From: a virus
Length of the DNA: 64,000 nucleotides
Direction: 5' to 3' (one strand)
IMG/VR virus record: IMGVR_UViG_3300014050_000003
Location: 32,001 to 96,000 of that record
Made by a program: the position numbers and the translations under genes. Below the pieces are notes generated by a model. That model saw only the letters and a list, made by a program, of their open reading frames with translations, searched no databases and was not told the DNA's origin. Shown piece after piece: positions 1-57,929 of this stretch. Positions within the stretch are counted from its first letter, which is position 1; every line of letters begins with the position of its first letter.

Positions 1-603
1 AGTGTATGAATCATAATAATTTTGTTTTCTGTTATCATCTTTTGATTCTTTATCATGTCTAAATATTAATCCTTTAAATTCCATTATAGGAACATTATTT
101 TCTTTAAAAAAATTAATTGCTTCATGTGCGCGTTCCCAATATTTTGGGTCCATTAATATTCCAATTTTTACTATAGATTGTTTTTCTATACCAAGTTTAA
201 CAATTTCTAATACATGTTTAAAATTGGCGTATCTTGGGTGAACGCTAAGATTTGTCATATTTATTTTGCTTAAATTTTTTTCCCAAAAATCCATTTTTGC
301 ACTTCCATTTGTATCTAAACCTATATAAAAATTATTTTCTTTAAAAAAGTCAATAAGATCATCTATGCCTTCATATATTGTAGGTTCTCCTCCAGTAAGA
401 CCTACGAATCTTTTTTGATATTGCATTATTTCTGGATTATCTAATAATAAATTTTTAAAAAAATTAATATAAGTTTGAATAGATATTAATGGTGTGGATC
501 CACTATTTAATTTTGGCGGACAATAAACGCATTGATAGTTGCATTTATTTAATATAGTAAATTGTATATTAAATTCATCATTTTCTATTGCTTTAATCTT
601 CAT
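1..603 (-). CDS. Radical SAM protein, runs off the window's left edge (not in ORF track)
   Basis: Manual translation from ATG at 603: MKIKAIENDEFNIQFTILNKCNYQCVYCPPK (CxxxCxxC), later LTGGEPT. Confidence 0.8.
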   Translation of the reverse strand, partial: MKIKAIENDEFNIQFTILNKCNYQCVYCPPKLNSGSTPLISIQTYINFFKNLLLDNPEIMQYQKRFVGLTGGEPTIYEGIDDLIDFFKENNFYIGLDTNGSAKMDFWEKNLSKINMTNLSVHPRYANFKHVLEIVKLGIEKQSIVKIGILMDPKYWERAHEAINFFKENNVPIMEFKGLIFRHDKESKDDNRKQNYYDSYT

Positions 604-1597: not shown

Positions 1598-1637
1598 ATA
1601 TCTTCTATATTAAATTATAATATAGATATTATTAAAG

Positions 1638-1865
1638 TCAATCAAAAATACTTTTATTTTTTTCTGGTATAAACTGAACTAATGCTTGATCACCATATAT
1701 TTGAAAAGAATACATTTTATATTTTTTATGTATTAACATATCTTTAAGTTGATTCATATACTGACTTTCCATATAAACTACAATCGTTTCGCCATCATGA
1801 ATATCAACGCCATATTCTTCTGCAAATTCAGAACAAATTGCTAGAGCTTCGTTTTGATCGCTCAT
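1638..1865 (-). CDS. Hypothetical protein (75 aa)
   Basis: ORF track; GTGTAA motif 8 nt upstream. Confidence 0.7.
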   Translation of the reverse strand: MSDQNEALAICSEFAEEYGVDIHDGETIVVYMESQYMNQLKDMLIHKKYKMYSFQIYGDQALVQFIPEKNKSIFD

Positions 1866-1873
1866 ATAATTAA

Positions 1874-1879
1874 TTACAC
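1874..1879 (-). promoter_or_regulatory. GTGTAA motif (candidate phage late promoter)
   Basis: 8 nt upstream of ATG at 1865. Confidence 0.55.
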
Positions 1880-1885
1880 GATAAT

Positions 1886-1972
1886 CGGGGCGAGTAGGAT
1901 TCGAACCTACGAATGTATTTCTACATCGGCAGTTTAGTAAACTGCTGTTTTAAACCGCTCAACCATCGCCCC
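1886..1972 (-). tRNA. tRNA-Ser, anticodon ACT, long variable arm, CCA not encoded
   Basis: Acceptor GGGGCGA/TCGCCCC, discriminator G; anticodon arm GCAGT-TTACTAA-ACTGC; variable arm GATGTA-GAAA-TACATT; T arm GTAGG-TTCGAAT-CCTAC. Confidence 0.9.
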
Positions 1973-1975
1973 CAT

Positions 1976-2047
1976 CTCCCAAACTAGGATTTGAACCTAG
2001 AACACCCTCGTTAACAGCGAGGCGCTCTACCATTGAGCTATTTGGGA
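1976..2047 (-). tRNA. tRNA-Asn(GTT), CCA not encoded
   Basis: Acceptor TCCCAAA/TTTGGGA; anticodon arm CCTCG-CTGTTAA-CGAGG; T arm CTAGG-TTCAAAT-CCTAG. Confidence 0.93.
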
Positions 2048-2052
2048 ATAAA

Positions 2053-2229
2053 TCAAATTATTTTAAAAACTTTAAGCATTATTATGCCAGACATAATAAT
2101 ACCAACAAATCCAGTAATTGTTCTAATAAGTTCCATTTTATGGTTATGCTTGTCTACCCATATCTCAAACTTATCTCTGAGTTTACCAGCTTTTTCTAAT
2201 TTCTTGAGTTTCTTTTTACTTATTTTCAT
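2053..2229 (-). CDS. Small membrane protein (58 aa, below ORF-track cutoff)
   Basis: MKISKKKLKKLEKAGKLRDKFEIWVDKHNHKMELIRTITGFVGIIMSGIIMLKVFKII; C-terminal hydrophobic helix; ATGA overlap with upstream ORF. Confidence 0.65.
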   Translation of the reverse strand: MKISKKKLKKLEKAGKLRDKFEIWVDKHNHKMELIRTITGFVGIIMSGIIMLKVFKII

Positions 2230-2390
2230 TTTTTTGAAATATAAAAATTATTTTTACCTTTTGGACATAATTTAATTATATATTCTTTTGCGGATTTATA
2301 ACCTTCTTTTGTTAAAGGAAATACTCCATGAAGAAAATTATCATTTTTAGAATGAATAGCGTAATATTTTTGTTTTTTAGTTTTAGGCAT
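2226..2390 (-). CDS. Small basic hypothetical protein (54 aa)
   Basis: MPKTKKQKYYAIHSKNDNFLHGVFPLTKEGYKSAKEY...; overlaps both neighbours in operon-like fashion. Confidence 0.6.
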   Translation of the reverse strand: MPKTKKQKYYAIHSKNDNFLHGVFPLTKEGYKSAKEYIIKLCPKGKNNFYISKK

Positions 2391-2556
2391 TTTTTTGTCT
2401 TTCATATTCTTGTATTAAATCTCTTAATAATTTAAGATGATGTACATCCCAACTATCTCCTGTGTCAGTTTTTTCTTTGTTTAAAAGGTCATAATATACG
2501 TTTTTTTCTATTATTTGATTCAATAGTGTTAGTATTTTATCATATAAATTATTCAT
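2383..2556 (-). CDS. Small hypothetical protein (57 aa)
   Basis: MNNLYDKILTLLNQIIEKNVYYDLLNKEKTDTGDSWDVHHLKLLRDLIQEYERQKNA; starts 6 nt after a -10 box. Confidence 0.6.
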   Translation of the reverse strand: MNNLYDKILTLLNQIIEKNVYYDLLNKEKTDTGDSWDVHHLKLLRDLIQEYERQKNA

Positions 2557-2562
2557 TAATAT

Positions 2563-2591
2563 ATTATATTAGAATATTTGCAAAAAGTCAA
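2563..2591 (-). promoter_or_regulatory. Sigma70-type promoter for the small-ORF/tRNA operon
   Basis: TTGACT-N17-TATAAT, ATG 6 nt downstream. Confidence 0.7.
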
Positions 2592-2605
2592 AAATCGTGT
2601 ATAAT
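2578..2605 (+). promoter_or_regulatory. Probable tmRNA promoter, divergent and overlapping the previous one
   Basis: TTGCAA-N16-TATAAT, 21 nt before the tmRNA 5' end. Confidence 0.45.
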
Positions 2606-2626
2606 CTTATATAGTTCTTTTACATT

Positions 2627-3014
2627 GGGCCCGAATTGGTTTCGATTTTATAGATCGAAATTAAAATGCAAGTGGAGGTTGAATCGAGGACTCCTTAAAA
2701 AGTTTCAATTATATTAACTGCCAAAACAGCTAAATATAAAGGTCATATCTCTGCTAGAGTTTCTCTAGTCGAGGAGACCGCTTCTGTAGCTTAAGTTCTA
2801 CAGCGTGACTACCTTGACACATCTATTGGATAGTTGCGTAATTAGATGTCTTATTATTAATAGTTTTTTTATTCTATTAATATTAAGTATTAAAAATAAA
2901 ATCGCTAAGTATGTTTGTTCTTTATCTATATGAAGCTAAAAACAAAAAGAACTAAACTTGTAGTATTTTAATTTAAATCTTTAAAAGACCGCAGTTCAAC
3001 TCTGCGCGGGTCCA
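2627..3014 (+). ncRNA. ssrA: tmRNA; tag ORF 2720-2794 AKTAKYKGHISARVSLVEETASVA*
   Basis: 5' GGGCCCG...GGTTTCGA; 3' GACCGCAGTTCAACTCTGCG-CGGGTCCA; G3:U70 alanine identity pair; TTAACT-GCC resume context. Confidence 0.9.
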
Positions 3015-3030
3015 AGTTTATTAAAAATAA

Positions 3031-3036
3031 GTGTAA
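3031..3036 (+). promoter_or_regulatory. GTGTAA motif
   Basis: 9 nt upstream of ATG at 3046. Confidence 0.55.
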
Positions 3037-3045
3037 TATATCAAT

Positions 3046-4170: not shown

Positions 4171-5163
4171 TTAAATGATATTTTTGTTTCCAGAAAAAAT
4201 AATTTCAACATATTCATCAATATTATTACTAATATAAGATTTTATAAAAGATTGCATTGCTTTTAAAGTATTAAATTTATATAGATTATTATTTTGAAAT
4301 AATTTGTATGTATTTATTTGTTCAAGAATATCACATTTATTTATAATTAATTTTGTAACACCAGATATTTTTATAGCATCAATTAATTTATTTAAATTAA
4401 GCCAATTAACAATTCTACGTCTTCCAGTAGTTGACCCAAATTCTTTTCCAATTTCTATTACCATATTCAATACTTCATCATTCCATAAGCTTTCTGGAAA
4501 TAAAGGATCTACGCCACTTTTTGTATCATAAATTTTAGCTACTCCAATTATATCTCTTATTTTTTTAGGACTAAAACCTAAAGAGCAAGCATTATAAGGT
4601 AAAGTTTCGCTACTTGTTACATATGGATAATCTCCATAATTTATATCTAACCAAAAACTCTGCGCACCTTCACAAAGAATATTCCCTTTAAGTTCTCCAT
4701 CCCAAATATATTTTTTATCAATATAATCTTTTGCTAATTTTCCAATTCGTAGCATTTTGTCTGCATATGCTGGAGCAATTCCTTGTCCAGTTGTGCCAAG
4801 TTTTGGTTTTAAGAATTTAAGATCATACTGAATATGTCTTTCAGTAATGATATGAGCTTTAGGACTAACTTTAATTAAAGAAGTGTCGAAGCCTTCTTTT
4901 TGTAAATATTCTATTTCATCAAAAAATTTATCAATATTGATAACGCAATTTGGACCGATAATACTAAGTTTATCTTGAAAAACTCCACAAGGAATAATAT
5001 GAGTTTTATATTTTTTATCATTAAGATAAACTGTATGACCTGCGTTTGGACCGCCATTCCAACGACAAACAATATCATAATTTTTAGCAATAGCATTACT
5101 TATCTTGCCTTTGCCTTCATCTCCCCAAGCTAAACCGAAAATAATATCAACTGCTTTGACCAT
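4171..5163 (-). CDS. purA: Adenylosuccinate synthetase (short form)
   Basis: WGDEGKGK, GGPNAGHT, GTTGQGIAPAY, EGAQ, YPYVTSS, TTGRRR, NKCD; start refined to MVKAVD at 5163. Confidence 0.93.
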   Translation of the reverse strand: MVKAVDIIFGLAWGDEGKGKISNAIAKNYDIVCRWNGGPNAGHTVYLNDKKYKTHIIPCGVFQDKLSIIGPNCVINIDKFFDEIEYLQKEGFDTSLIKVSPKAHIITERHIQYDLKFLKPKLGTTGQGIAPAYADKMLRIGKLAKDYIDKKYIWDGELKGNILCEGAQSFWLDINYGDYPYVTSSETLPYNACSLGFSPKKIRDIIGVAKIYDTKSGVDPLFPESLWNDEVLNMVIEIGKEFGSTTGRRRIVNWLNLNKLIDAIKISGVTKLIINKCDILEQINTYKLFQNNNLYKFNTLKAMQSFIKSYISNNIDEYVEIIFSGNKNII

Positions 5164-5404
5164 TTTGTTTTTTAGCAATTTCTTCTAAATAATTAACAAG
5201 CATTTTTTTACAAAAATCATATCCTTCCTTACCACAACAATGCTTAAATTTCTTTCCTTCCAAGGCGCATAAATCATTTCTGCCCATTTTAGGCGCTACT
5301 CTATGAATTGGTGCTCCACCATAAGCTCTAATATATGGAGTATCTACATGACTAAAATCAATTTTTTGATTAGATGAGCTAGAGCTATTATTTTCTGTTT
5401 CCAT
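5147..5404 (-). CDS. SEC-C motif metal-binding protein
   Basis: KMGRNDLC...GKKFKHCCG. Confidence 0.75.
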   Translation of the reverse strand: METENNSSSSSNQKIDFSHVDTPYIRAYGGAPIHRVAPKMGRNDLCALEGKKFKHCCGKEGYDFCKKMLVNYLEEIAKKQNGQSS

Positions 5405-5642: not shown

Positions 5643-6335
5643 TTATATTTCGTCAATATCATTTATTTGTATTAATTTAATTTTATTATTTTTATTAATT
5701 AAAATATAAGATGCTTGTTTTTCACAAAAACTTCCAGTATTAATGTATTTTTCGGTTTGTTCTGGTAAATGAGTATGACCACAAATTATAGTATTATAAC
5801 CATTCATATCAATATATTTGATAGCGTTTTGTTTGATATCGGAGCTTTTTTCAACAAAATCATTTGTATGATGTTTAAATATTCTAAAAAAATCATCTGC
5901 AAATGGAGTATAATGTCTAACAAAATAATATGCTTTTATAATAAAATTAGTAATCCACTTATATTTTGTGAAATAAATATCAAAAATATCGCCATGAACT
6001 ACTAATATTTTTTTATCTTTTAATTCTATGATATGTTCGTCCTTACAATTAAATCCAAGAAGAATACTCATAAACTCTGCTTTAAGAAAACAATGATTGC
6101 CAATCAAATAAATTATTTTAGATTTTTTAGAAAGCTTGCGTAATTTAGACAATACTTTCCAATGAGTTTTATTTAGTCTGTGTAAATTGTGGTGGTCAAA
6201 AAGATCCCCAGCAATTATAATAGTTTTCGCTTTGTTTTGTTTTAAAACTTTTAATAATAATTCAGCTTTACAATCTTTATCTCCAAGATGAATATCTGAT
6301 ATTATTAAATATTTATTTTGTTTCCTGTGAGCCAT
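5643..6335 (-). CDS. Calcineurin-like metallophosphoesterase, LpxH/YbbF-like
   Basis: SDIHLG, GDLFD, GNH, HGD, GHTH, NTGS. Confidence 0.8.
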   Translation of the reverse strand: MAHRKQNKYLIISDIHLGDKDCKAELLLKVLKQNKAKTIIIAGDLFDHHNLHRLNKTHWKVLSKLRKLSKKSKIIYLIGNHCFLKAEFMSILLGFNCKDEHIIELKDKKILVVHGDIFDIYFTKYKWITNFIIKAYYFVRHYTPFADDFFRIFKHHTNDFVEKSSDIKQNAIKYIDMNGYNTIICGHTHLPEQTEKYINTGSFCEKQASYILINKNNKIKLIQINDIDEI

Positions 6336-11796: not shown

Positions 11797-12377
11797 TGAA
11801 AATCATTGGAATTTCTGGCGTAGCAACTTCTGGTAAAGATACTTTATGCAATCTTATATCTAGATATTTAGCTCAAAAAAATATAGAAACAAAAAGGGTT
11901 GCTTTAGCCGATAAATTAAAAGAAGACTTAAAAGATTTTTTAATTGAAAAATTTAATGTAGATATTACAAAACCTACTATAGAAGAAAAAACTTTAGTAA
12001 GACCAATATTAGTATCTTATGGTAAGGTTAAGCGTAACTTAACTAAAGGCACTTACTGGACTAATAAAATTAATTCAGATATAGATGATTTATTGAATAA
12101 TAATATATTGCCAATAATTACTGATATAAGATATATGGAATATCCAGAAGATGAATTTTCATGGCTTAAGAAAAAAAGTGGAGTGCTAATTCATATATCT
12201 AGATTAGATTCTAATGATAAATTAATTCCACCAGCTAATTCTGAGGAGAAAGAAAATGATAAAATGATAAAAGAGAATGCAGATTTATCTTGTACTTGGA
12301 AAACTCAAGAAGATTTGGACTCTCTATATTATGAACATATTAAATTTTTGGAGAAAATATATGAAACAATTAAATGA
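11796..12377 (+). CDS. Deoxynucleotide monophosphate kinase-like P-loop kinase
   Basis: GISGVATSGKDT, ALADKLK, ITDIRY. Confidence 0.75.
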   Translation: MKIIGISGVATSGKDTLCNLISRYLAQKNIETKRVALADKLKEDLKDFLIEKFNVDITKPTIEEKTLVRPILVSYGKVKRNLTKGTYWTNKINSDIDDLLNNNILPIITDIRYMEYPEDEFSWLKKKSGVLIHISRLDSNDKLIPPANSEEKENDKMIKENADLSCTWKTQEDLDSLYYEHIKFLEKIYETIK

Positions 12378-12975
12378 ACTTGAATACTTAACTGATGCTC
12401 AACTTATAGAAAATGTAAAATGCAATAATTGCAGTGATTCTATGAAAGAGCTAGAAGATAGACATAGCGGTATTTGTTATACTATGATTAAAAAATATTA
12501 TAACAGTATGTCTTCTATTGGTGTTGATCCTGTAGAAATAGCTAAAGAAAAAGATTATGTAATATACAAATCTGCTCTTAATTTTGATATTTCAAAAAAT
12601 ATAAAATTTTCTACTTGGTTAGGTAATCAAATGCGATTTCATTGTCTAAATTGTATGAATAAAAACAATAGTACTATTTCAATGGAAAATGAATCTATTA
12701 AAAATATTATGGAAAAAAATCAAATGCTTTATTCTAGCTCTGTTTTGAATAAAGATAATTGCGAATATATTTTTAATTTATTAGATCAATTAAAAGATAA
12801 AAGAATTATTGAAATTTTTAAAATGCGTTATTTTTCAGATAAAAAAACTGTATCTTGGAGTAAAATTGGAAAGAAACTTAAAATTAGTACCCAGACGGTA
12901 ATTAATTTGCATAATAAAACATTAAAGTTTCTTAAAAATAAATTAGAAAGTAATAGTTTTCAAGATACTATCTAA
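12361..12975 (+). CDS. Phage RNA polymerase sigma factor (sigma70 family, regions 2 and 4)
   Basis: FDISKNIKFSTW (region 2); C-terminal HTH WSKIGKKLKISTQTVINLH; start refined to 12361. Confidence 0.78.
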   Translation: MKQLNELEYLTDAQLIENVKCNNCSDSMKELEDRHSGICYTMIKKYYNSMSSIGVDPVEIAKEKDYVIYKSALNFDISKNIKFSTWLGNQMRFHCLNCMNKNNSTISMENESIKNIMEKNQMLYSSSVLNKDNCEYIFNLLDQLKDKRIIEIFKMRYFSDKKTVSWSKIGKKLKISTQTVINLHNKTLKFLKNKLESNSFQDTI

Positions 12976-15635: not shown

Positions 15636-16700
15636 TTATAGCTTTAAATCACCAAAATCTTCGTCTTCTATATCAGTCTTTCTTGCACCAACTTTATAAC
15701 TAGAAATCTCTGTTTCTTGAGGTGCGACTTGGACTTTACTACTATCTAGATAACTATCTAACCATCCAGAAATAGGATTATCTTTTTGATTAAATATCTT
15801 TTTATAGCCAAGACTTCTGAGCCTAGAATCACATAACCATTTAGAATATCCATCTAAAACTTCAGCATTTAAACCTAATAAACTACCTTTACTAAATAGA
15901 TATTTAGACCATTCGCTTTCATTTTTTGCAGCTTGCTCATAAAAAGCGTATATTTTATCTTCACTTTTTTTAACTATATTAGTGAAACCTTCTTTGTCTT
16001 CATCTCTTAAAATTTTAAGTAAATTTTGGCTTACTGCAAAATGCAAAGCCTCATCTCTTTGAATAAATTTTATGATCTTAGAATTACCTTCCATCTTTCC
16101 ACGATATCCAAAATAGAAAGAACAGGCAAAAGAAACGTAAAACACAAGACCTTCCATTACATTAATAGAAAGAATAGCATCAAAAATCTTTTGTTTAGGA
16201 TCTTTCTTTTCATCATCACCAAGAATTTTATCAAAATTATTTCTAATTAATTCTGCACGGCTTGTAATTTCTTTATCTTCCATAATACTATCAAAAAATT
16301 TAGTTGCATCTGGATATACGTTATTTAAAAGATAAGAGTAAGAATAACTATGAATACCCTCAAATTGTGCCCAAGTATTCATACAAATTTCAAGTTCTGG
16401 ATTAGTAACATAATCTTTAAGACTATGAATACTTCTAGAAAGCATACTATCTCCAAGAGTTTGAAATCTAAGATTGCTATCAAAAACAAATCTTTCTGTA
16501 TCTGTTAAATTTTTATAATCACTACGATCTTTTCCTAAAGCTATTTCATGAGGCCACCAAAAATTTTCATTTTGTTTTTTAAACAATTCAAAAAATATAG
16601 GATATTTAAACCGATCATATCTTTGAAGATTCAAATCTTCTCCAAGAAATAATGGTTGTTTAGTAGTATCTATATTTTTAAAATTTAAAACTGTTTTCAT
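15636..16700 (-). CDS. nrdB: Ribonucleotide reductase class Ia, beta subunit
   Basis: FWWPHE, EGIHSYSY, EGLVFYVSFA, RDEALH, QVAPQETEISSY. Confidence 0.95.
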   Translation of the reverse strand: MKTVLNFKNIDTTKQPLFLGEDLNLQRYDRFKYPIFFELFKKQNENFWWPHEIALGKDRSDYKNLTDTERFVFDSNLRFQTLGDSMLSRSIHSLKDYVTNPELEICMNTWAQFEGIHSYSYSYLLNNVYPDATKFFDSIMEDKEITSRAELIRNNFDKILGDDEKKDPKQKIFDAILSINVMEGLVFYVSFACSFYFGYRGKMEGNSKIIKFIQRDEALHFAVSQNLLKILRDEDKEGFTNIVKKSEDKIYAFYEQAAKNESEWSKYLFSKGSLLGLNAEVLDGYSKWLCDSRLRSLGYKKIFNQKDNPISGWLDSYLDSSKVQVAPQETEISSYKVGARKTDIEDEDFGDLKL

Positions 16701-18949
16701 AATTTACATGCTCCACTTGAACAATCTCTATCTTCTTTTTGATTAAGAGACTGCTCTTTATCTCCATCGTCTGTATTATTGTAATAAAGACTAATTAATC
16801 CAAGGCTATATGCGTACATAATTTCTTTCATTACTTTAGCGTCTGGTAATATATTATTTTCATAATGACTATAGTTATAGTATACATTAGTTGATATAGC
16901 CATGTCAATATATTTTTGAATAACTGCATTAATTTTTAACAATCCAGTATTATCTTTAAGATCATAAGCTAATTCATAATTATCATCATATTTTCCAATT
17001 CCTGGAACCATAACTGGAAGTTTACCCATTTTACTAGTTTTATAAGTAATAAGACTACGAATAGGCTCAACTCCATTTGTTGAGCATTGAATAACTGAAC
17101 TACTTTCACAAGGCATACAAGAAGATAATGTAGAATGTCTTAATCCAAATTCTTTAATATCTTTCCTTAATTTTTCCCAATCAAGTGATAATTTTCTTTT
17201 AACTAACTCATCTACTTTATCTTTATATGTATCAATCGGAAGTATACCTTTAGAGTATTTAGTTTTATCAAATTTTTCACATTTGCCTTTTTCTTTAGCT
17301 AATTCAAGGCTACTTTTTAATAGATAGTATTGAAAATGTTCCATCCATTCATCAACAACAGATAATGACTTATCTGAACTGTATTTTAATTCATTTTTAG
17401 CGAGAAAAGCCGCAAGATTAGTTATACCAACTCCAAGACTTCTACGCTTTTTTGCAAAATTTTCAGCAGCAATATTAAAGTAATCTTGCAGATCTATGAT
17501 TTCATCAAGAAATCTTACGATAAGATCGCAGGTCTTTTCAAGATCTTGCCAGCTCTTTATTTCTAACATATTTACTGCCGAAAGTATACACATTCCAATC
17601 TCCCCATTTTTATCATGATAATCATTCAATGGAATAGTTGGATGAATAACTTCAGTGCAAAGATTACTCATTGTAACTTTATCTAACCAAGCTCCATGAT
17701 TATTTGCATGATCAACATTTAATATATAAATACGACCAGTTTCAACTCTCTCTTTAACTATTAGAGAAAATAGTTTACGAGCAGATATTTTCTTTTTAAT
17801 TTTTAATTTTTTAGATTCACACTCTTTATAAATTTTATCAAAATCTTTTGTTCCCCATGCTTCATAAAGTTCTGGAACTTCTGCATTATTGAATAAAGTG
17901 ATATCTTCATCTTTTAAAACTCTATCATAAAACAACTTACTCATTCCAACAGTATAATCTAATTTACGAACACGATTGTCATCTGTGCCAGCATTATTTT
18001 TTAATACTACAATATCTTCAATTTCATAATGCCACCATTGAATATTACAAGTTGCACTTCCACCTCTTAATCCGTTTTGTTGCCATGCTTTGACACTACT
18101 TTCATAAATTTTTAAGAATGGAATTAAACCTGTATGAACAACTTCACCATTTTTAATTGGTGAACCTATAGCTCTAATTTTACTAACATCAATACCAATA
18201 CCGCATCTATTAGCAGTAGCCATACTAACAGCCGTAGCACTAGCAGTAATACTTTCTCTAGTATCATCTACTCCAATTAAACAACAACTAGCATAATTTT
18301 TACTAGAAGTCCTAACTCCTGCCATTACTGGTGTTGGAAGATTAATTTTATGTTTACTAATAGCATCATAAAATTTTCTTACATAAGATAGTCTTGTTTC
18401 TATTGGATAGCGTGCAAAAGCATATGCTGCAATTAAAATATAAGCAAATTGTGGAGTTTCATAAATTTTACCATTAGTTCTATTTTTTATCAAATATTTA
18501 TCGCAAAGTTGTTTGATTCCAGCGTATGTAAAAATATAATCTCTATCATGGTCAATAAATTCACCAATTTTATTAATTTCATCTTCGGAATAATGATTTA
18601 ATATAGATTCATCATAAATTTTATTTTTTATACTTTCTTTTAGAAATTCTAATAATCTTGGAGCATGTTTACCTTTCCAGACATCTTTTCTTAATTGATA
18701 ATTCAAAAGTCTAGCAGCAACAAATTGATAGTTTGGTTTATCAAAAGAAATTAAGTTAGCTGCACTTTCAATCAACAGATTGTGTATTTCTTTTGTTGTT
18801 ATACCATCTGTAATATTTATTTTAGCATTGATTTCGATATCTGTAAGACTTACTCCTGAGTATCCATCTATTGCCCAATTGATTACTTTGTTAATTTTTT
18901 CTATGTTAAATTTTTCTGTAGTATTATTTCTTTTTTTTACATGTATCAT
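16697..18949 (-). CDS. nrdA: Ribonucleotide reductase class Ia, alpha subunit with ATP cone
   Basis: VKKRN ATP cone, ETPQ, PTP, SCC, SNLCTE, C-terminal LYY...CSSGAC. Confidence 0.95.
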   Translation of the reverse strand: MIHVKKRNNTTEKFNIEKINKVINWAIDGYSGVSLTDIEINAKINITDGITTKEIHNLLIESAANLISFDKPNYQFVAARLLNYQLRKDVWKGKHAPRLLEFLKESIKNKIYDESILNHYSEDEINKIGEFIDHDRDYIFTYAGIKQLCDKYLIKNRTNGKIYETPQFAYILIAAYAFARYPIETRLSYVRKFYDAISKHKINLPTPVMAGVRTSSKNYASCCLIGVDDTRESITASATAVSMATANRCGIGIDVSKIRAIGSPIKNGEVVHTGLIPFLKIYESSVKAWQQNGLRGGSATCNIQWWHYEIEDIVVLKNNAGTDDNRVRKLDYTVGMSKLFYDRVLKDEDITLFNNAEVPELYEAWGTKDFDKIYKECESKKLKIKKKISARKLFSLIVKERVETGRIYILNVDHANNHGAWLDKVTMSNLCTEVIHPTIPLNDYHDKNGEIGMCILSAVNMLEIKSWQDLEKTCDLIVRFLDEIIDLQDYFNIAAENFAKKRRSLGVGITNLAAFLAKNELKYSSDKSLSVVDEWMEHFQYYLLKSSLELAKEKGKCEKFDKTKYSKGILPIDTYKDKVDELVKRKLSLDWEKLRKDIKEFGLRHSTLSSCMPCESSSVIQCSTNGVEPIRSLITYKTSKMGKLPVMVPGIGKYDDNYELAYDLKDNTGLLKINAVIQKYIDMAISTNVYYNYSHYENNILPDAKVMKEIMYAYSLGLISLYYNNTDDGDKEQSLNQKEDRDCSSGACKL

Positions 18950-19099
18950 TTATAAAATCCTTTTATTAGAGATGTAAGTAATGTTACAGTATTTTTAACT
19001 TTTAAAAAAGAAAAAAAATAAAAGTTATCAACATTAAATATAAAACTTTAAATTAAGTGTACTGATTTAATATCTTATAAAAAATAATAACTTTTCTTT

Positions 19100-19405
19100 G
19101 ATATCCTAATAGGCTTTACCTCGCAAAGATATATTTTGCAAGGTTGTTTATAGATCTTCGCCAACTTTTCTTTTGACTCCTTTTTCTTTAGCGTTTCTTC
19201 CAAAGAATGGCTACGGCATTTATAGGAACGCGGTTGGTTATTCCTGTGCATTTTGCCGTACCTTACACCTACATTTCGTTGTAAGCTTTTTAAACAAACA
19301 ACATTTTAATGGTCGTCAGCCTATGGGACGTTGCCATCGCAAAGCTAAGATACTAGAGGATTTATTTGACTATCCACAAAACTGCTTTATTAGGAAGCTA
19401 TGTAA
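19100..19405 (-). ncRNA. Unidentified structured noncoding element (candidate ncRNA or cis-regulatory leader)
   Basis: GC-richer than flanks; closing helix 19104-19111/19388-19395 enclosing several hairpins; sigma70 promoter at 19412-19440 points into it. Confidence 0.55.
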
Positions 19406-19411
19406 TGATAT

Positions 19412-19440
19412 ATAATATATTTTTATTATTGATTTGTCAA
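19412..19440 (-). promoter_or_regulatory. Sigma70-type promoter reading into the structured element and toward nrdA
   Basis: TTGACA-N17-TATTAT. Confidence 0.65.
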
Positions 19441-19447
19441 ATAAAAA

Positions 19448-19453
19448 GTGTAA
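19448..19453 (+). promoter_or_regulatory. GTGTAA motif
   Basis: 14 nt upstream of ATG at 19468. Confidence 0.5.
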
Positions 19454-19467
19454 TTTTATACAATAAT

Positions 19468-20457
19468 ATGGAAATTGATTTTACAAGCGATATTCAAGCA
19501 GCAAAAAAAGGTAAAGCACCTTTAAATAAACCTTTTAGATTACCTTCTGGAAGTAAAAAGAAATTTGGTGTTTATGTAAAAAACGATAAAGGTAATACTG
19601 TAATGGTAAAATTTGGTGATCCAAATATGTCTATTAAAAGAGATAATCCAGCTAGACGTAAAGCTTATAGAGCAAGACATGGTTGCAGTAATCCAGGTCC
19701 AAAATGGAAAGCTAATTACTGGAGTTGCAAAATGTGGAGTAAAAAACCAGTTAGTAAAATTACTGGAAGTGAAGAAGAAATTACTTTAGAAGCAGATATT
19801 CAAGCTAAAAATAAAGGTCTTTGGTATAATATTCAACAAAAGAAAAAAAGAATGGGTAAAAATTATCGTCCAGCAAAACCAGGATCACCAGATCGTCCAA
19901 CACAAGAAGCTCTTAAAAAAGCTCAAGCTGAAGAATACGAATGGGATGGTGAAACAGAATTTGATCAAGCCGAACTTTTAAAACTTGATCCATCTCTTGC
20001 TCAAGTTCCAGAAATGCCAGAATCTCCAGAAGAAGAACTACAAGAATATAAAGATGATTTTTATGGTATGATTGTTGGCTCTATTAATTCTATACAAGTT
20101 CATGCTCAAAATATTTTAAATAAATTAGAAGATCCAATCGTAAAAGAAAATCTTACAGAACCATTCCTACAACAAATGGCAGCTCTTGCTGAAGATTATA
20201 TGATTACGATTCATAATTTTGTAATGTTTAATAAAGAAGATGAAAGTATAGCTTCAACAATGTTTAAAGTTGGAGATAAAGTTCAAAACATTAATCCAGC
20301 TTGCATGCATTATGGTAGCGAAGGAATTGTAAAAGAAATTAGAGAACTTCCAGAAAATATGGGATATGCAGTAATTTATGAATGCACAAATAATGGTCCA
20401 ACTTGGAAAATGGGCGATGTGATTGGCAAAACTGAAATTCAATTAAGAAAAATATAA
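19468..20457 (+). CDS. Modular phage protein: basic RARH-C/YWSC module (DUF6321-like), GLWxNI module, acidic helical region, KOW/SH3-like C-terminus
   Basis: VKFGDPNMSIKRDNPARRKAYRARHGC...ANYWSCKMW; GLWYNIQQKKKR; FKVGDKV; start refined to MEIDFT. Confidence 0.7.
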   Translation: MEIDFTSDIQAAKKGKAPLNKPFRLPSGSKKKFGVYVKNDKGNTVMVKFGDPNMSIKRDNPARRKAYRARHGCSNPGPKWKANYWSCKMWSKKPVSKITGSEEEITLEADIQAKNKGLWYNIQQKKKRMGKNYRPAKPGSPDRPTQEALKKAQAEEYEWDGETEFDQAELLKLDPSLAQVPEMPESPEEELQEYKDDFYGMIVGSINSIQVHAQNILNKLEDPIVKENLTEPFLQQMAALAEDYMITIHNFVMFNKEDESIASTMFKVGDKVQNINPACMHYGSEGIVKEIRELPENMGYAVIYECTNNGPTWKMGDVIGKTEIQLRKI

Positions 20458-51693: not shown

Positions 51694-54265
51694 TTTTCTA
51701 GAAGACAAACAGTTTTCCTCAAAGTTTGATAATGTGGATTTAGGTCTGCATGGAGTTAGATTGCCAGAATTTTTAATTGATTCAGCAGCAAAAAGACATT
51801 TAAATATAAGTGAAGACTCTTCAAATTACGACTTTTTAAGGGCTTTATCTTTAAATGGATTTAAAAATTTAAAGATAGATAAAAATTCTCCAGAATATAA
51901 AAAATATGTAGATCGAGCTAAATATGAATTGGATACATTAAAAGAACTGGGTTTTATTGATTATATTTTATTGGTTTGGGACGTTATTAATTTTTGTAAA
52001 ACAAATAATATTCCAGTTGGTCTTGGTAGAGGCTCTGCGGCTGGATCTCTTATTCTTTATCTTGTAGGAGTAACTAGAATTGATCCAGTTAAATATGATC
52101 TTTATTTTGAAAGATTTATATCTAAGATTCGCGCTAAAAAGCAAGTTATTGATGGAATAACATATTTGGATGGCAGTTTAATGTGTGATGTTGATTTGGA
52201 TATTTGTTATTATAATCGTCATAAAGTTCTAGAATATCTTGAAGGGAAATTTAAAGGTAAAACGAGTAAAATTTTAACTCTTAATACTCTTAGTGGAAAA
52301 TTACTTATTAAAGAATGCGGTAAAATCATAAGTGAAAAAACAGAAGAAGAAATGACTAATACTTCTTCACTTATACCTAAATTGTACGGACAAGTAAAAG
52401 ATATCACTAGCGCATATGAGGAAGTTCCCAAATTTAAAGAATGGTGTGACGAAAATAAAGAAGTTTATGAAATAGCTTTGAAACTAAGAGATCTTATTAA
52501 AAATAAAGGCGTTCATCCTTCTGGAGTTTTATTATCATACCATGATTTAGATAAAGTTTGTCCAACTGAGTTTTCAAGTGATAAAGAAGCAGTTTCAAGT
52601 TTTGATATGAATTGGGTTAGTTTATTTAATATTAAACTTGATATTTTAGGTTTAAGAAGCGTATCCGTAGTACATGACGTATGCAAAAGCATTGGTATTA
52701 ATATTGAAGATATTGATTTAAATCATGAATCTATTTATAGAACTTTACAAGATTTGAAGTCTCCGCACGGATTATTTCAAATTGAAGCAGATACTAATTT
52801 TAGAGTTTGTCAAAAAGTTAAGCCTAAGAATTTAGAAGAGCTGAGTGGAGTTTTGGCGCTAGCCCGACCTGGGGCTTTGCAGTTTGTTGATAAATATGCA
52901 GCTCATACTAATTTCCAACAGTCCGAAAGTATCCATCCATTATTTGATGATATTTTAAAAGAAACTGGTGGAGTAGCGTTATATCAAGAGCAATTAATGA
53001 AAATGGCTCATAAAATTGGGTTTACTCTAGATGAAGCAGAAATTTTGAGAAGAATTGTGGGTAAAAAGAAAACTGAAGAGATCAAAACTTGGAAAAAGAA
53101 AATTGAATCTAAAATAAAAGAAAATAAACTTCCAAAAGAAGTAGGAGAAATTTTATGGAAGATTCTAGAAGACTCGGCTAATTATTCATTCAATAAATCA
53201 CATTCAATTGCTTATGCTGCTTTGGCCGCTATTACAGTTTATTTAAAATTCAATCATCCTCAACAATTCTTTTTGTCTTTGCTGAAGATGACAAGAAATG
53301 AACCAGATCCAATTGGAGAAATATCTAAGATTCAAAAGGAGATGGGACACTTTAATATTAAATTATTAAAACCTCATATCATTAAATCTGAAATGGATTT
53401 CTCTCTAGAAGGAGATGATATTAGATTCGGATTGCTTTCTGTAAAAGGTATTTCGGATAAATCTATTGAAAAACTAAATAGCTTTAGAAATAAATATTCT
53501 AATAAATTTGAAATATTTCAAGCCGCAGAAGAAGCGGATTTAAATATTGGAGTATTATGTTCATTAATTCAAGCTGGAGCGTTAACTGGATTTAAACAAA
53601 GCAGAAGCAAGATTGTCTTAGAAGCTCAATTATGGAACATCTTAACTGCAAAAGAAAAGAAATATGTAATATCTTTTGCTGAAAAATTTGATTTTGATTT
53701 AATACGAATTATCAAACATCTTAATAAATTCACAGATGAAAAGAATAAAGTTATTATAAAGTCCACTAGATTAGAAACAATTAAAAAGAAATATGAACCA
53801 TACTTAAAAATATATAATCAAAATAATAAAAGTGAAAGTTTTGCTAATTGGTATTATGAGAAAAAGCTTTTGGGTTATAGTTATGAAAGAACATTAAAAG
53901 ATATCTTTTCAGAAAAAAGAGAAGATTTAGAATATATTAATACTATTCAAGATTTATCACTTAATCAAAAAGCTGTATTAATTGGCCAAGTAGAGGAAAC
54001 CTATTCTGGAACATCTAAAAATGAAAAGAAAACTAAATATTTTAGGCTAAAGGTGGCGGATGAAACTGGATTAGCTACAGTGCTTTTATTTAATGATAAA
54101 ATTGAAAATTGTAAAAATCTTAATGGTGGTAAAAATCCAGAAGAAGGAAATATTGTAATAGTTAAAGGCATTAAAAAAGAAGATTGTATATTTGCTGATT
54201 TAGTAGCTATTCAAGACCATGAAATATATATGAAATTAAGTGAAATAAAAAAGGTTGACATTTAA
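51686..54265 (+). CDS. dnaE: DNA polymerase III alpha core lacking the PHP domain
   Basis: GRGSAAGSL, FERF, DVDLD, HPSGV, KLDILGL, RPG, YQEQ, YSFNKSHS, C-terminal OB fold; start refined to 51686. Confidence 0.92.
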   Translation: MINFLEDKQFSSKFDNVDLGLHGVRLPEFLIDSAAKRHLNISEDSSNYDFLRALSLNGFKNLKIDKNSPEYKKYVDRAKYELDTLKELGFIDYILLVWDVINFCKTNNIPVGLGRGSAAGSLILYLVGVTRIDPVKYDLYFERFISKIRAKKQVIDGITYLDGSLMCDVDLDICYYNRHKVLEYLEGKFKGKTSKILTLNTLSGKLLIKECGKIISEKTEEEMTNTSSLIPKLYGQVKDITSAYEEVPKFKEWCDENKEVYEIALKLRDLIKNKGVHPSGVLLSYHDLDKVCPTEFSSDKEAVSSFDMNWVSLFNIKLDILGLRSVSVVHDVCKSIGINIEDIDLNHESIYRTLQDLKSPHGLFQIEADTNFRVCQKVKPKNLEELSGVLALARPGALQFVDKYAAHTNFQQSESIHPLFDDILKETGGVALYQEQLMKMAHKIGFTLDEAEILRRIVGKKKTEEIKTWKKKIESKIKENKLPKEVGEILWKILEDSANYSFNKSHSIAYAALAAITVYLKFNHPQQFFLSLLKMTRNEPDPIGEISKIQKEMGHFNIKLLKPHIIKSEMDFSLEGDDIRFGLLSVKGISDKSIEKLNSFRNKYSNKFEIFQAAEEADLNIGVLCSLIQAGALTGFKQSRSKIVLEAQLWNILTAKEKKYVISFAEKFDFDLIRIIKHLNKFTDEKNKVIIKSTRLETIKKKYEPYLKIYNQNNKSESFANWYYEKKLLGYSYERTLKDIFSEKREDLEYINTIQDLSLNQKAVLIGQVEETYSGTSKNEKKTKYFRLKVADETGLATVLLFNDKIENCKNLNGGKNPEEGNIVIVKGIKKEDCIFADLVAIQDHEIYMKLSEIKKVDI

Positions 54266-54283
54266 TTAAATATAATATATCAT
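54255..54283 (+). promoter_or_regulatory. Sigma70-type promoter
   Basis: TTGACA-N17-TATCAT, ATG 7 nt downstream. Confidence 0.65.
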
Positions 54284-56759: not shown

Positions 56760-57914
56760 ATGCATCTAGTAGAAAAATATGCCACTTCGTGCGGAATTAA
56801 AATAAATAAGCCAGAAATTTATCAAAAATATTCACCAATTCCTTATGATAAATATATCATTTTTTACCCTCAAAATATAAAAAGTGGAGCAGAATATGAT
56901 CATTGGCAAATAGTTATTAATGCTATTTTTCAATTCTTAGCTCCAGAAAATATCTATATAATTCAAATTGGTAATAAAGATTCTAGAAAATATACTAATT
57001 GCGCTTTTATAGATGAAGCTTCAATTGATTTTCAAAATTTAGGTTATATTATTAAAAATGCAGAACTAGTTTTAGGTGTTGATGGAATTAATAATCATAT
57101 AGCTTCTTCTTTCAATAAAAAAATAGTAGCTCTTTATTATAATATTAATTTAGAAAATGTAAAACCATATTGGGGAGATAAATCTAATCAAAGATTATTG
57201 TATCCTAAAATTTCTACAAAACCATTTTATGGCGCGAATAAAACTCATAAATCTATTAATTCTATAAATCCAGAAGAAGTAGGTAGAAGCGTTTTAGATT
57301 TATTGAATATAAAATATCCTCAAATGATTAATACTCTTTTTATTGGTAATAATTTTAATAATAGAACATTAGATGTTATTCCAGACGGCCCAATTAATAT
57401 CGAGGTTTTAAATACTCCCAACTTAATAGTAAGAATGGACCTGCATTTTGATGAAGCTGTATTGAATAACCTTTTATCTCATAAAAAATGTATAATAATA
57501 ACTAAAAAATCAATAAATTCAGAATTAATAATTAATCATAAGAAAAATATATTGCAAATAGTATACATATTAGATCAAGATAATGATCCAAATTTTATTA
57601 AATTTATCAAAAATAATAATATTCAATATACCTTATTATCAGAAGAAACAGAAGAAATTATTAATACTTTTAAATTCAAATATATGGATTATGGTTTAAT
57701 TTTTAAAAAGAATAAAAATGAAAAAAGTTTTGAGCTTCCCAAGAATAAGCAAATCTTTTTTAGATGTGCTAAAATATATTTTTCATCAAAAGGCGCTTTT
57801 AATGGAAAATACGCATGGTTAAATAATTTGCAAAATTCGCAAGAAGTAACTGATAATGAATTATTTTGGGAAGATCTTCAAGATTTGCATATTTTCACTA
57901 TTGACAATTTTTAA
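56760..57914 (+). CDS. GT9 (heptosyltransferase-like) C-terminal domain protein
   Basis: HLVEKYA, YDHW, IIQIG, LGVDG..NHIASSFNKKIVALY. Confidence 0.62.
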   Translation: MHLVEKYATSCGIKINKPEIYQKYSPIPYDKYIIFYPQNIKSGAEYDHWQIVINAIFQFLAPENIYIIQIGNKDSRKYTNCAFIDEASIDFQNLGYIIKNAELVLGVDGINNHIASSFNKKIVALYYNINLENVKPYWGDKSNQRLLYPKISTKPFYGANKTHKSINSINPEEVGRSVLDLLNIKYPQMINTLFIGNNFNNRTLDVIPDGPINIEVLNTPNLIVRMDLHFDEAVLNNLLSHKKCIIITKKSINSELIINHKKNILQIVYILDQDNDPNFIKFIKNNNIQYTLLSEETEEIINTFKFKYMDYGLIFKKNKNEKSFELPKNKQIFFRCAKIYFSSKGAFNGKYAWLNNLQNSQEVTDNELFWEDLQDLHIFTIDNF

Positions 57915-57929
57915 TATAAGTGATATACT
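57901..57929 (+). promoter_or_regulatory. Sigma70-type promoter
   Basis: TTGACA-N17-TATACT, ATG 6 nt downstream. Confidence 0.65.

Follow-up and report, generated by a model that had tools for sequence, protein, structure and literature searches.

The window analysed here is a stretch of 64,000 nucleotides (nt), bases 32001-96000 of the 121,058-base virus record IMGVR_UViG_3300014050_000003, whose completeness is estimated at 77%, and the subject of this work is the gap that lies upstream of the NrdA gene of the uncultured lake phage. On the minus strand, NrdB is encoded by the open reading frame (ORF) 15636-16700 and a full-length, intact class Ia NrdA of 750 amino acids by the ORF 16697-18949, the closest cultured phages for the latter being the Pelagibacter phages Mosig (53.4%) and HTVC008M (52.2%); to the right, the plus-strand ORF 19468-20457 encodes a protein of 329 amino acids without a Pfam family. 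Between these two, the minus strand of 19090-19402 is shown to encode, as a gene in its own right, a non-coding RNA about 313 nt in length, an intricately folded molecule that carries two copies of one short tract.

The record is AT-rich (28% GC), and the segment 19100-19399 stands out from it with a GC content of 0.34-0.41, against 0.12-0.24 and 0.18-0.22 in its flanks, as a first-pass annotation made from the letters of the window had noticed. The same annotation took the gap for the longest intergenic one, which is correct as long as RNA genes are counted as genes; otherwise, the stretch 1598-3045 is a longer run without an ORF, one that contains a one-piece transfer-messenger RNA (tmRNA) at 2627-3015 on the plus strand (108.9 bits, Rfam) and two transfer RNAs (tRNAs) at 1886-2047 on the minus strand.

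The RNA gene and its relatives

It may be taken as practically certain that the molecule is real, a separately transcribed and structured non-coding RNA of a new family. The minus strand folds with an energy of -77.2 kcal/mol (z = -2.86), a value that none of 100 dinucleotide-shuffled sequences equalled, so that the first-pass expectation of a fold better than shuffled controls holds for this strand; for the plus strand, z is -0.76 and 21 of the 100 shuffles are as good. The promoter of the form TTGACA-N17-TATTAT that had been proposed for a minus-strand transcript also stands, and in the form TTGAC[AT]-N16-18-TAnnnT it is kept in 31 of the 36 distinct upstream regions of the homologues. In the window the predicted start lies about 7-10 nt past this promoter, near 19402-19405, and the conserved promoter puts the start of the RNA at a conserved CAUAG/CAUAC. 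No conserved ORF is found in the RNA, the longest complete ones (19-67 codons) differing among clades, and the insertions and deletions that separate the copies are not multiples of three.

The relatives were gathered by means of NrdA, as the best 80 of 195 confirmed stretches in viral contigs (198 pattern matches), and in 42 of these 80 loci the element is found by blastn. A covariance model built from five aligned close copies, with a nested structure of 59 pairs, finds one match (E <= 0.01) in each of 47 of the 81 sources, the window included, where the RNA gene scores 387.7 bits and is the single copy within the 121-kb record. Among the clades A to D, the last is distant, GC-richer and about 280 nt long, scores 46-80 bits, and is mostly missed by blastn. 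Of the loci fetched by one conserved pattern, the model also confirms five of nine additional viral ones and 18 of 61 from metagenomes. In contigs of bacterial and archaeal genomes, the same single pattern, which fits clades A and D only, fetched 24 stretches, none of them confirmed by the model at the place of the pattern, and two weak matches elsewhere have E values of 0.012 and 0.21; blastn of the gap against 50,697 phage records (E <= 0.01) gives no match. The family is abundant among uncultured lake phages related to the pelagimyophages.

As far as comparison with known sequences and models can tell, the RNA belongs to no catalogued kind and is a new family, and the first-pass proposal of a new phage non-coding RNA is supported, with a conserved promoter of its own, with strong covariation among the relatives and with no family in Rfam. 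Rfam 15 finds in the whole window the tmRNA and the two tRNAs named above and nothing else, and at 18900-19520 (E <= 10) its best match is RybB, with 17.7 bits against a gathering score of 40; nothing rises above noise on two clade-D copies, and nothing lies at the RNA in the loci of eight relatives. Polynucleobacter-1 (RF01718) has no match in the 121-kb record at E <= 10, nor on the element, and the models of cobalamin and other riboswitch aptamers have none on the element of the window or on the clade-D copies. The group I intron model (RF00028) does not match at the element either; the model does work on these phages, because it detects a true intron in the relative L036 (57.5 bits, L036:7666-7897, plus strand), about 650 nt from the RNA gene. 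ARAGORN, run on 37 loci containing the RNA or relatives, places no tRNA or tmRNA at the RNA and finds tmRNAs elsewhere only, in L008, L114 and L118. No description of the RNA was found in Rfam 15 or in the published literature searched; a catalogue of candidate phage RNAs lists motifs of 29-151 nt (PMC10690425), and its supplementary tables may hold fragments of the family.

The position of the gene bears on another first-pass proposal, a leader of nrdAB. A cis-acting leader or riboswitch would accord with 22 of the 47 copies (the window, clade A and clade D), which lie upstream of nrdA and on its strand, mostly about 130-150 nt before the start codon (1.3 kb in L066), and with the window itself, where neither a terminator nor a strong sigma-70 promoter stands between the RNA and nrdA. 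However, the other 25 copies (clades B and C) are found 1-2.5 kb downstream of nrdAB and on the opposite strand, where the RNA converges on the end of a gene for 171 amino acids; in the majority of 17 upstream regions examined, nrdA has conserved motifs of its own (a TGTAAT-type element and GTACAC), with or without an adjacent RNA; and no riboswitch model matches. On account of this placement and of these motifs, the RNA is not regarded as the leader of nrdA, a reading that synteny largely refutes and to which very little credence can be given. For annotation, this means that the supposed nrdA leader of these phages is a separate gene. In two relatives (L045 and L008) the RNA and the tmRNA gene of the phage are arranged back to back, some 300 nt from each other.

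The motifs that precede nrdA lie at about 18978-19062 on the minus strand, and at about 2840-3000 in the loci of the relatives, and comprise GTACAC, a partly palindromic segment like TTGTTAATAAC and the TGTAAT-type element, which resembles an extended -10. They may be the promoter and operator of nrdA itself, possibly akin to an NrdR box.

Metatranscriptome evidence consists of contigs from four runs (X3, X4, X17 and X19), which carry neither strand nor ends nor expression level. Runs X3 and X4 belong to the study from which the source sample likely came, and their contigs span the whole region with its flanks. Those of X17 and X19, from two further studies, span 19163-19356 and 19138-19356, respectively, of a relative diverged by about 1 base in 20, and they give a weak hint that the RNA is made, the uncovered flanks there being no evidence in themselves.

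Nine helices and three pseudoknots

The RNA is shown to fold into nine helices tied together by three pseudoknots (Table 1). In an alignment blind to structure (MAFFT, 24 distinct copies, ten helices with aligned columns counted), 97.7% of the cells are paired and 23 of the 47 pairs change on both sides; covariation reaches 0.444, against 0.07-0.10 when the partners are slid by 1-3 columns, in which case pairing falls to 34-48%. When 43 distinct rows are aligned by fitting them to the model, a procedure biased in favour of that model, 94.1% of the cells are paired and 49 of 59 pairs covary. In this latter alignment the long-range helix LR1 is 89-100% paired and all seven of its pairs covary, and it was checked by eye in clades A to D.

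Table 1. Features of the RNA gene and of its product (window coordinates; the last column gives RNA positions, support or sequence)
Feature	Position	Strand	Details
RNA gene	19090..19402	-	about 313 nt; 5' end placed by the promoter, 3' end by where conservation stops
Sigma-70-type promoter	19412..19440	-	TTGACA 19440-19435, 17-nt spacer, TATTAT 19417-19412; 11 of 12 consensus positions
H1 hairpin	19384..19398	-	RNA 5-8/16-19; 100% paired, 3 of 4 pairs change on both sides (structure-blind)
H2 hairpin	19356..19377	-	RNA 26-31/42-47; 97% paired, 6 of 6 change on both sides (model-fitted)
LR1, 5' strand	19344..19351	-	RNA 52-59; long-range helix closing the central domain
LR1, 3' strand	19154..19161	-	RNA 242-249
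H3 two-part hairpin	19309..19337	-	RNA 66-69, 73-76/86-89, 91-94; structure-blind support
H4 hairpin	19277..19303	-	RNA 100-105/121-126; 94% paired, 5 of 6 covary (model-fitted)
H5/H6 stacked hairpin	19213..19268	-	span includes PK3; RNA 144-149/185-190 and 158-162/175-179; 93-100% paired (structure-blind)
H7 hairpin	19184..19207	-	RNA 196-203/212-219; 100% paired, 6 of 7 change on both sides (structure-blind)
H8 hairpin, then UAAAG	19119..19143	-	RNA 260-268/276-284; 92% paired, 7 of 9 covary (model-fitted)
PK1	19394-19391 with 19108-19105	-	H1 loop CCUA with tail UAGG; 99% paired (structure-blind)
PK2'	19324-19318 with 19115-19109	-	H3 loop AUAGGCU with AGCCUAU just after H8; 7 base pairs
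PK3		-	RNA 135-139 (strand before H5) with 153-157 (H5 internal loop); supported in clades A-C, uncertain in clade D
Twin tract, copy 1	19164..19176	-	UCAAAAGAAAAGU; RNA 227-239, between H7 and LR1 (central multiloop)
Twin tract, copy 2	19090..19101	-	UCAAAGAAAAGU; RNA 302-313, 3' end of the conserved RNA
Tract variant 1			UCAAAGAAAAGU
Tract variant 2			UUAAAGAAAAGU
Tract variant 3			UCAUUGGGAAGU
Tract variant 4			UCAUUGGAAAGU
Tract variant 5			UCACUGGGAAGU
Tract variant 6			UCAUUGGGAAGA
Tract variant 7			UCAUUGGGAAAU
Tract variant 8			UCAUUGGGAAAA

Seven pairings had been named in the first-pass annotation, and under covariation five of them hold and two fail. The pairing of ACCTCGCAAA with TTTGCAAGGT is H8, TACGGCA/TGCCGTA enclosing AGGAA/TTCCT is H5/H6, and ATGG-CGTC/GACG-CCAT is H3; the helix described as closing the element is real and covaries, although it does not have that role, being the pseudoknot PK1 between the H1 loop and the 3' tail. 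As for those that fail, the long-range pair GTTGTTT/AAACAAC is paired in only 44% of the cells, and ACCTACA/TGTAAGC, 73% paired and with one covarying pair, conflicts with the well-supported H4.

PK2', a pairing absent from that first reading, forms with 6-8 base pairs (bp) in all 16 distinct combinations of loop and tail (15 by script, and the 16th, of 6 bp, by eye), and does so through nine helix sequences (AUAGGCU, GAAGGCU, CAGGCU, AAGGGCU, GAAGACU, CGGAGCU, CGAAGCU, CAAAGCU and CAGAGCU); as a control, loops set against the tails of other RNAs reach 7 bp in 8% of cases. For the same H3 loop, RNAalifold chose a pairing of 4 bp with the AGCC that follows H5; since this one cannot form in clade D, the 7-bp pairing with the tail was preferred.

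The strand that follows H8 has a further resemblance, to RNase P RNA (RF00010, RF00011). The hairpin is succeeded by GAGG(U/G)AAAG(C/U)C, which pairs in a long-range helix with a distant strand ending in GGCU, and these three elements, within a core that is pseudoknotted in both molecules, are what we take to recall P3, CR-I and P4 of that ribozyme; the phage, in addition, encodes tRNA and tmRNA genes. A highly diverged or rearranged ribozyme of the RNase P type would, however, have its partner strand in a hairpin loop, an order of elements unlike that of RNase P or of any simple circular permutation of it, and nothing recognisable as a specificity domain; CR-II to CR-V are not recognised, the CR-I/P4-like strand after H8 being the only such element seen, and with a cutoff of E <= 10 the RNase P models find nothing in the window or in two copies of clade D. 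Such a derivation is, in our judgement, extremely unlikely.

Identical tracts and what could read them

The twin tracts of the RNA are purine-rich, and in copy 1 the UC is invariably followed by one base that copy 2 lacks. The 65 matches of the model reduce to 54 distinct sequences, 51 of which hold both tracts, and every one of these 51 has the same letters in both copies at each of the 12 shared positions, with eight variants in all. Several of the variants are changes of a single lineage, each made in both copies (e.g., in L050, L070 and L051). In other words, the tracts are letter for letter identical within an RNA while their sequence drifts between lineages, which makes of them an experimental handle. 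Their predicted thermodynamic accessibility is high in clades A to C, which is soft evidence. Within the RNA, no segment complements the tract throughout the clades; in clades A to C the loop of H1 matches the NGG that immediately precedes each tract, and in clade D it matches a part of the tract itself, a pattern that L050 breaks.

The best overall explanation, held tentatively and with somewhat less than even confidence, is that of a separately promoted, knotted non-coding RNA which presents its twin tracts bivalently. Of the promoter type of the RNA, the 121-kb record contains 27 occurrences, compared with about 11 in shuffled sequence, and most of the 27 directly precede small genes in an early-looking region. 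The RNA, probably made early in infection, would be transcribed from this host-type (sigma-70-like) promoter, of the class that precedes the early-looking genes of the phage, and would act in trans, its rigid pseudoknotted body presenting two identical single-stranded tracts of 12-13 nt, one in the central multiloop and the other at the 3' end. These would be met by one sequence-specific reader, which could be one nucleic acid, of host or phage, in two copies, or else a protein of two-fold symmetry, and the RNA would thus serve as a bivalent decoy, clamp or guide at an early stage. Such a bivalent reader is quite conceivable as the mechanism, though doubtful. The many small concerted changes of the tracts would argue for recognition by base pairing over recognition by a protein, and the complement missing from the phage contigs would point to a partner in the host.

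A more specific form of this mechanism, which we consider unlikely, is a natural bivalent guide or decoy whose two freely re-codable tracts of 12 nt each pair with a copy of the same host nucleic acid, or hold two molecules together; if so, the tract variant (eight have been seen) would set which host, or which host defence, a lineage handles. If the tracts are programmable recognition elements, they would represent a new phage way to target or evade host components. An even stranger arrangement is also compatible with the data: the two tracts would pair together as a parallel, like-with-like duplex, which would of itself oblige the copies to remain identical. In the immunity systems of phages P4 (CI RNA with seqA/seqC) and P1/P7 (c4 RNA), short elements that are present twice co-evolve with a complementary RNA element of the same operon, and they set the specificity between related phages; in contrast, the present RNA and the phage contigs at hand yielded no such complement.

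Several observations weigh against a bivalent presentation by a separate transcript, some of them concerning the tracts and others the transcript itself. Thermodynamic folding gives the tracts of clade D only an average unpaired probability (0.32-0.79). Duplexes with the tmRNA or tRNAs (best -7 to -15 kcal/mol) fall at different places in each phage and do not track the tract. Of the four exact occurrences of the tract 10-mer in the 121-kb record, two are the RNA itself, and the record holds no second exact site for the complement of the tract; near-copies (at most two mismatches, both strands) number 38 in the record against about 14 in mononucleotide shuffles and belong to ordinary coding sequence rich in A. 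Among the contigs of five partial clade-D relatives (31-54% complete), no complement of the tract turned up elsewhere at up to two mismatches; the matches with 0-1 mismatch are the RNA genes only, one further site has two mismatches, and a degenerate 8-mer, with 9-25 matches per strand in each record, is uninformative. Moreover, a fixed partner tolerant of wobble pairs would not alone force the identity of the copies, so that the concerted changes are not fully explained. With regard to the transcript, no intrinsic terminator hairpin of the RNA gene was found, and transcription may therefore continue into nrdA in clades A and D; the X3 and X4 contigs prove little, because the flanks are covered too; and the ends and the strand of the RNA are predictions from sequence, to which the RNA libraries add contigs alone.

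The tracts and loops could instead be contacts between subunits, if the RNA were a self-assembling "ornate" homo-oligomer in the manner of ROOL and GOLLD, which are reported to form RNA-only assemblies (PMC12286853); we find this improbable. Like those two, the present RNA is borne by phages, separately transcribed, large for a small RNA, far more intricate than is typical of that class and without an assigned function, and as they are often near genes of tRNA type, so it adjoins the tmRNA in some relatives; in clade D, furthermore, tract 1 is nearly self-complementary (10 bp, including G-U pairs). Nevertheless, this self-complementarity is absent from clades A to C and is broken in L050, and none of the loops complements the tracts in every clade. 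The models of ROOL (RF03087) and GOLLD (RF01998) do not match at the element, on the clade-D copies or in the loci of the relatives, and twin identical single-stranded tracts have not been described for either family. ROOL is roughly 580 nt long and GOLLD roughly 800 nt, and the present RNA, with its 313 nt or so, is roughly half of the former. Large and intricately folded RNAs of unfamiliar role are rare, and each one so far has opened new biology.

Processing offers another way to account for a pair of equal sequences, in that the tracts would be identical sites of cleavage (or of cleavage and joining), so as to leave two pieces held by LR1 and PK2', or to release a segment of about 75 nt. 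Copy 2 marks the exact end of conservation, where a terminator is lacking; the X17 contig starts one base past the 3' end of tract 1, at 19163; and two-piece tmRNAs are reported from related marine phages (PMC9004378). The end of a contig, however, does not mark an end of the RNA, the X19 contig crosses the very spot, and a fixed nuclease would not explain eight tract variants that co-vary; we regard this reading as very improbable.

The purine-rich tracts, together with the divergent strand switch at which the cumulative GC skew turns, could also suggest the primer of a replication origin, which the first-pass annotation had ventured; such a transcript would form an R-loop on the phage DNA and so start DNA synthesis. 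This proposal did not gain positive evidence. The skew turns at the very point where the coding strand changes, the place of the locus among its neighbours shifts from one clade to another, AT-rich iterons or repeats of the tract are absent nearby, and neither three covarying pseudoknots nor two identical tracts would be necessary for a primer; its chances appear, if anything, slighter than those of processing.

Neighbouring genes and further observations

Promoters of the form TTGACA-N17-TAnnnT are followed by an ATG within about 6-9 nt in the record bases 1-30000 and, in the window, at 54255-54283 and 57901-57929 (both on the plus strand), a spacing from which it would follow that many of the early-looking genes have leaderless or nearly leaderless mRNAs. 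A promoter outside the window, at record bases of about 500-561 (minus strand), is followed by a very GC-rich run (GGGGGCGGGGCCCCCGCGCGCGC), despite the 28% GC of the genome. A protein of 232 amino acids (12277-12975, plus strand) weakly matches a PHROG annotated as RNA polymerase sigma factor (E 1.9e-7), and its ORF adjoins the genes for a dCMP deaminase and a dNMP kinase.

The tmRNAs of the relatives bear, according to ARAGORN, an unusual long tag, e.g., AKTAKYKGHISARVSLVEETVSVA. On the minus strand of the window, at 4171-5178, a protein of 335 amino acids matches the PHROG "2-aminooxy adenylosuccinate synthetase" (phrog_1211, E 4e-66), which we take to be PurZ-like in appearance, and close to it, at 5643-6335 on the same strand, is a gene for a metallophosphoesterase. 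The two give a hint of DNA with 2-aminoadenine (Z), or else of a plain auxiliary gene of the PurA type.

Finally, in one X19 contig, derived from a relative, 19023 is linked to 19835 through 12 letters of other sequence, a junction which suggests a relative with another arrangement, one without the RNA gene and the start of the 329-amino-acid gene at this spot.

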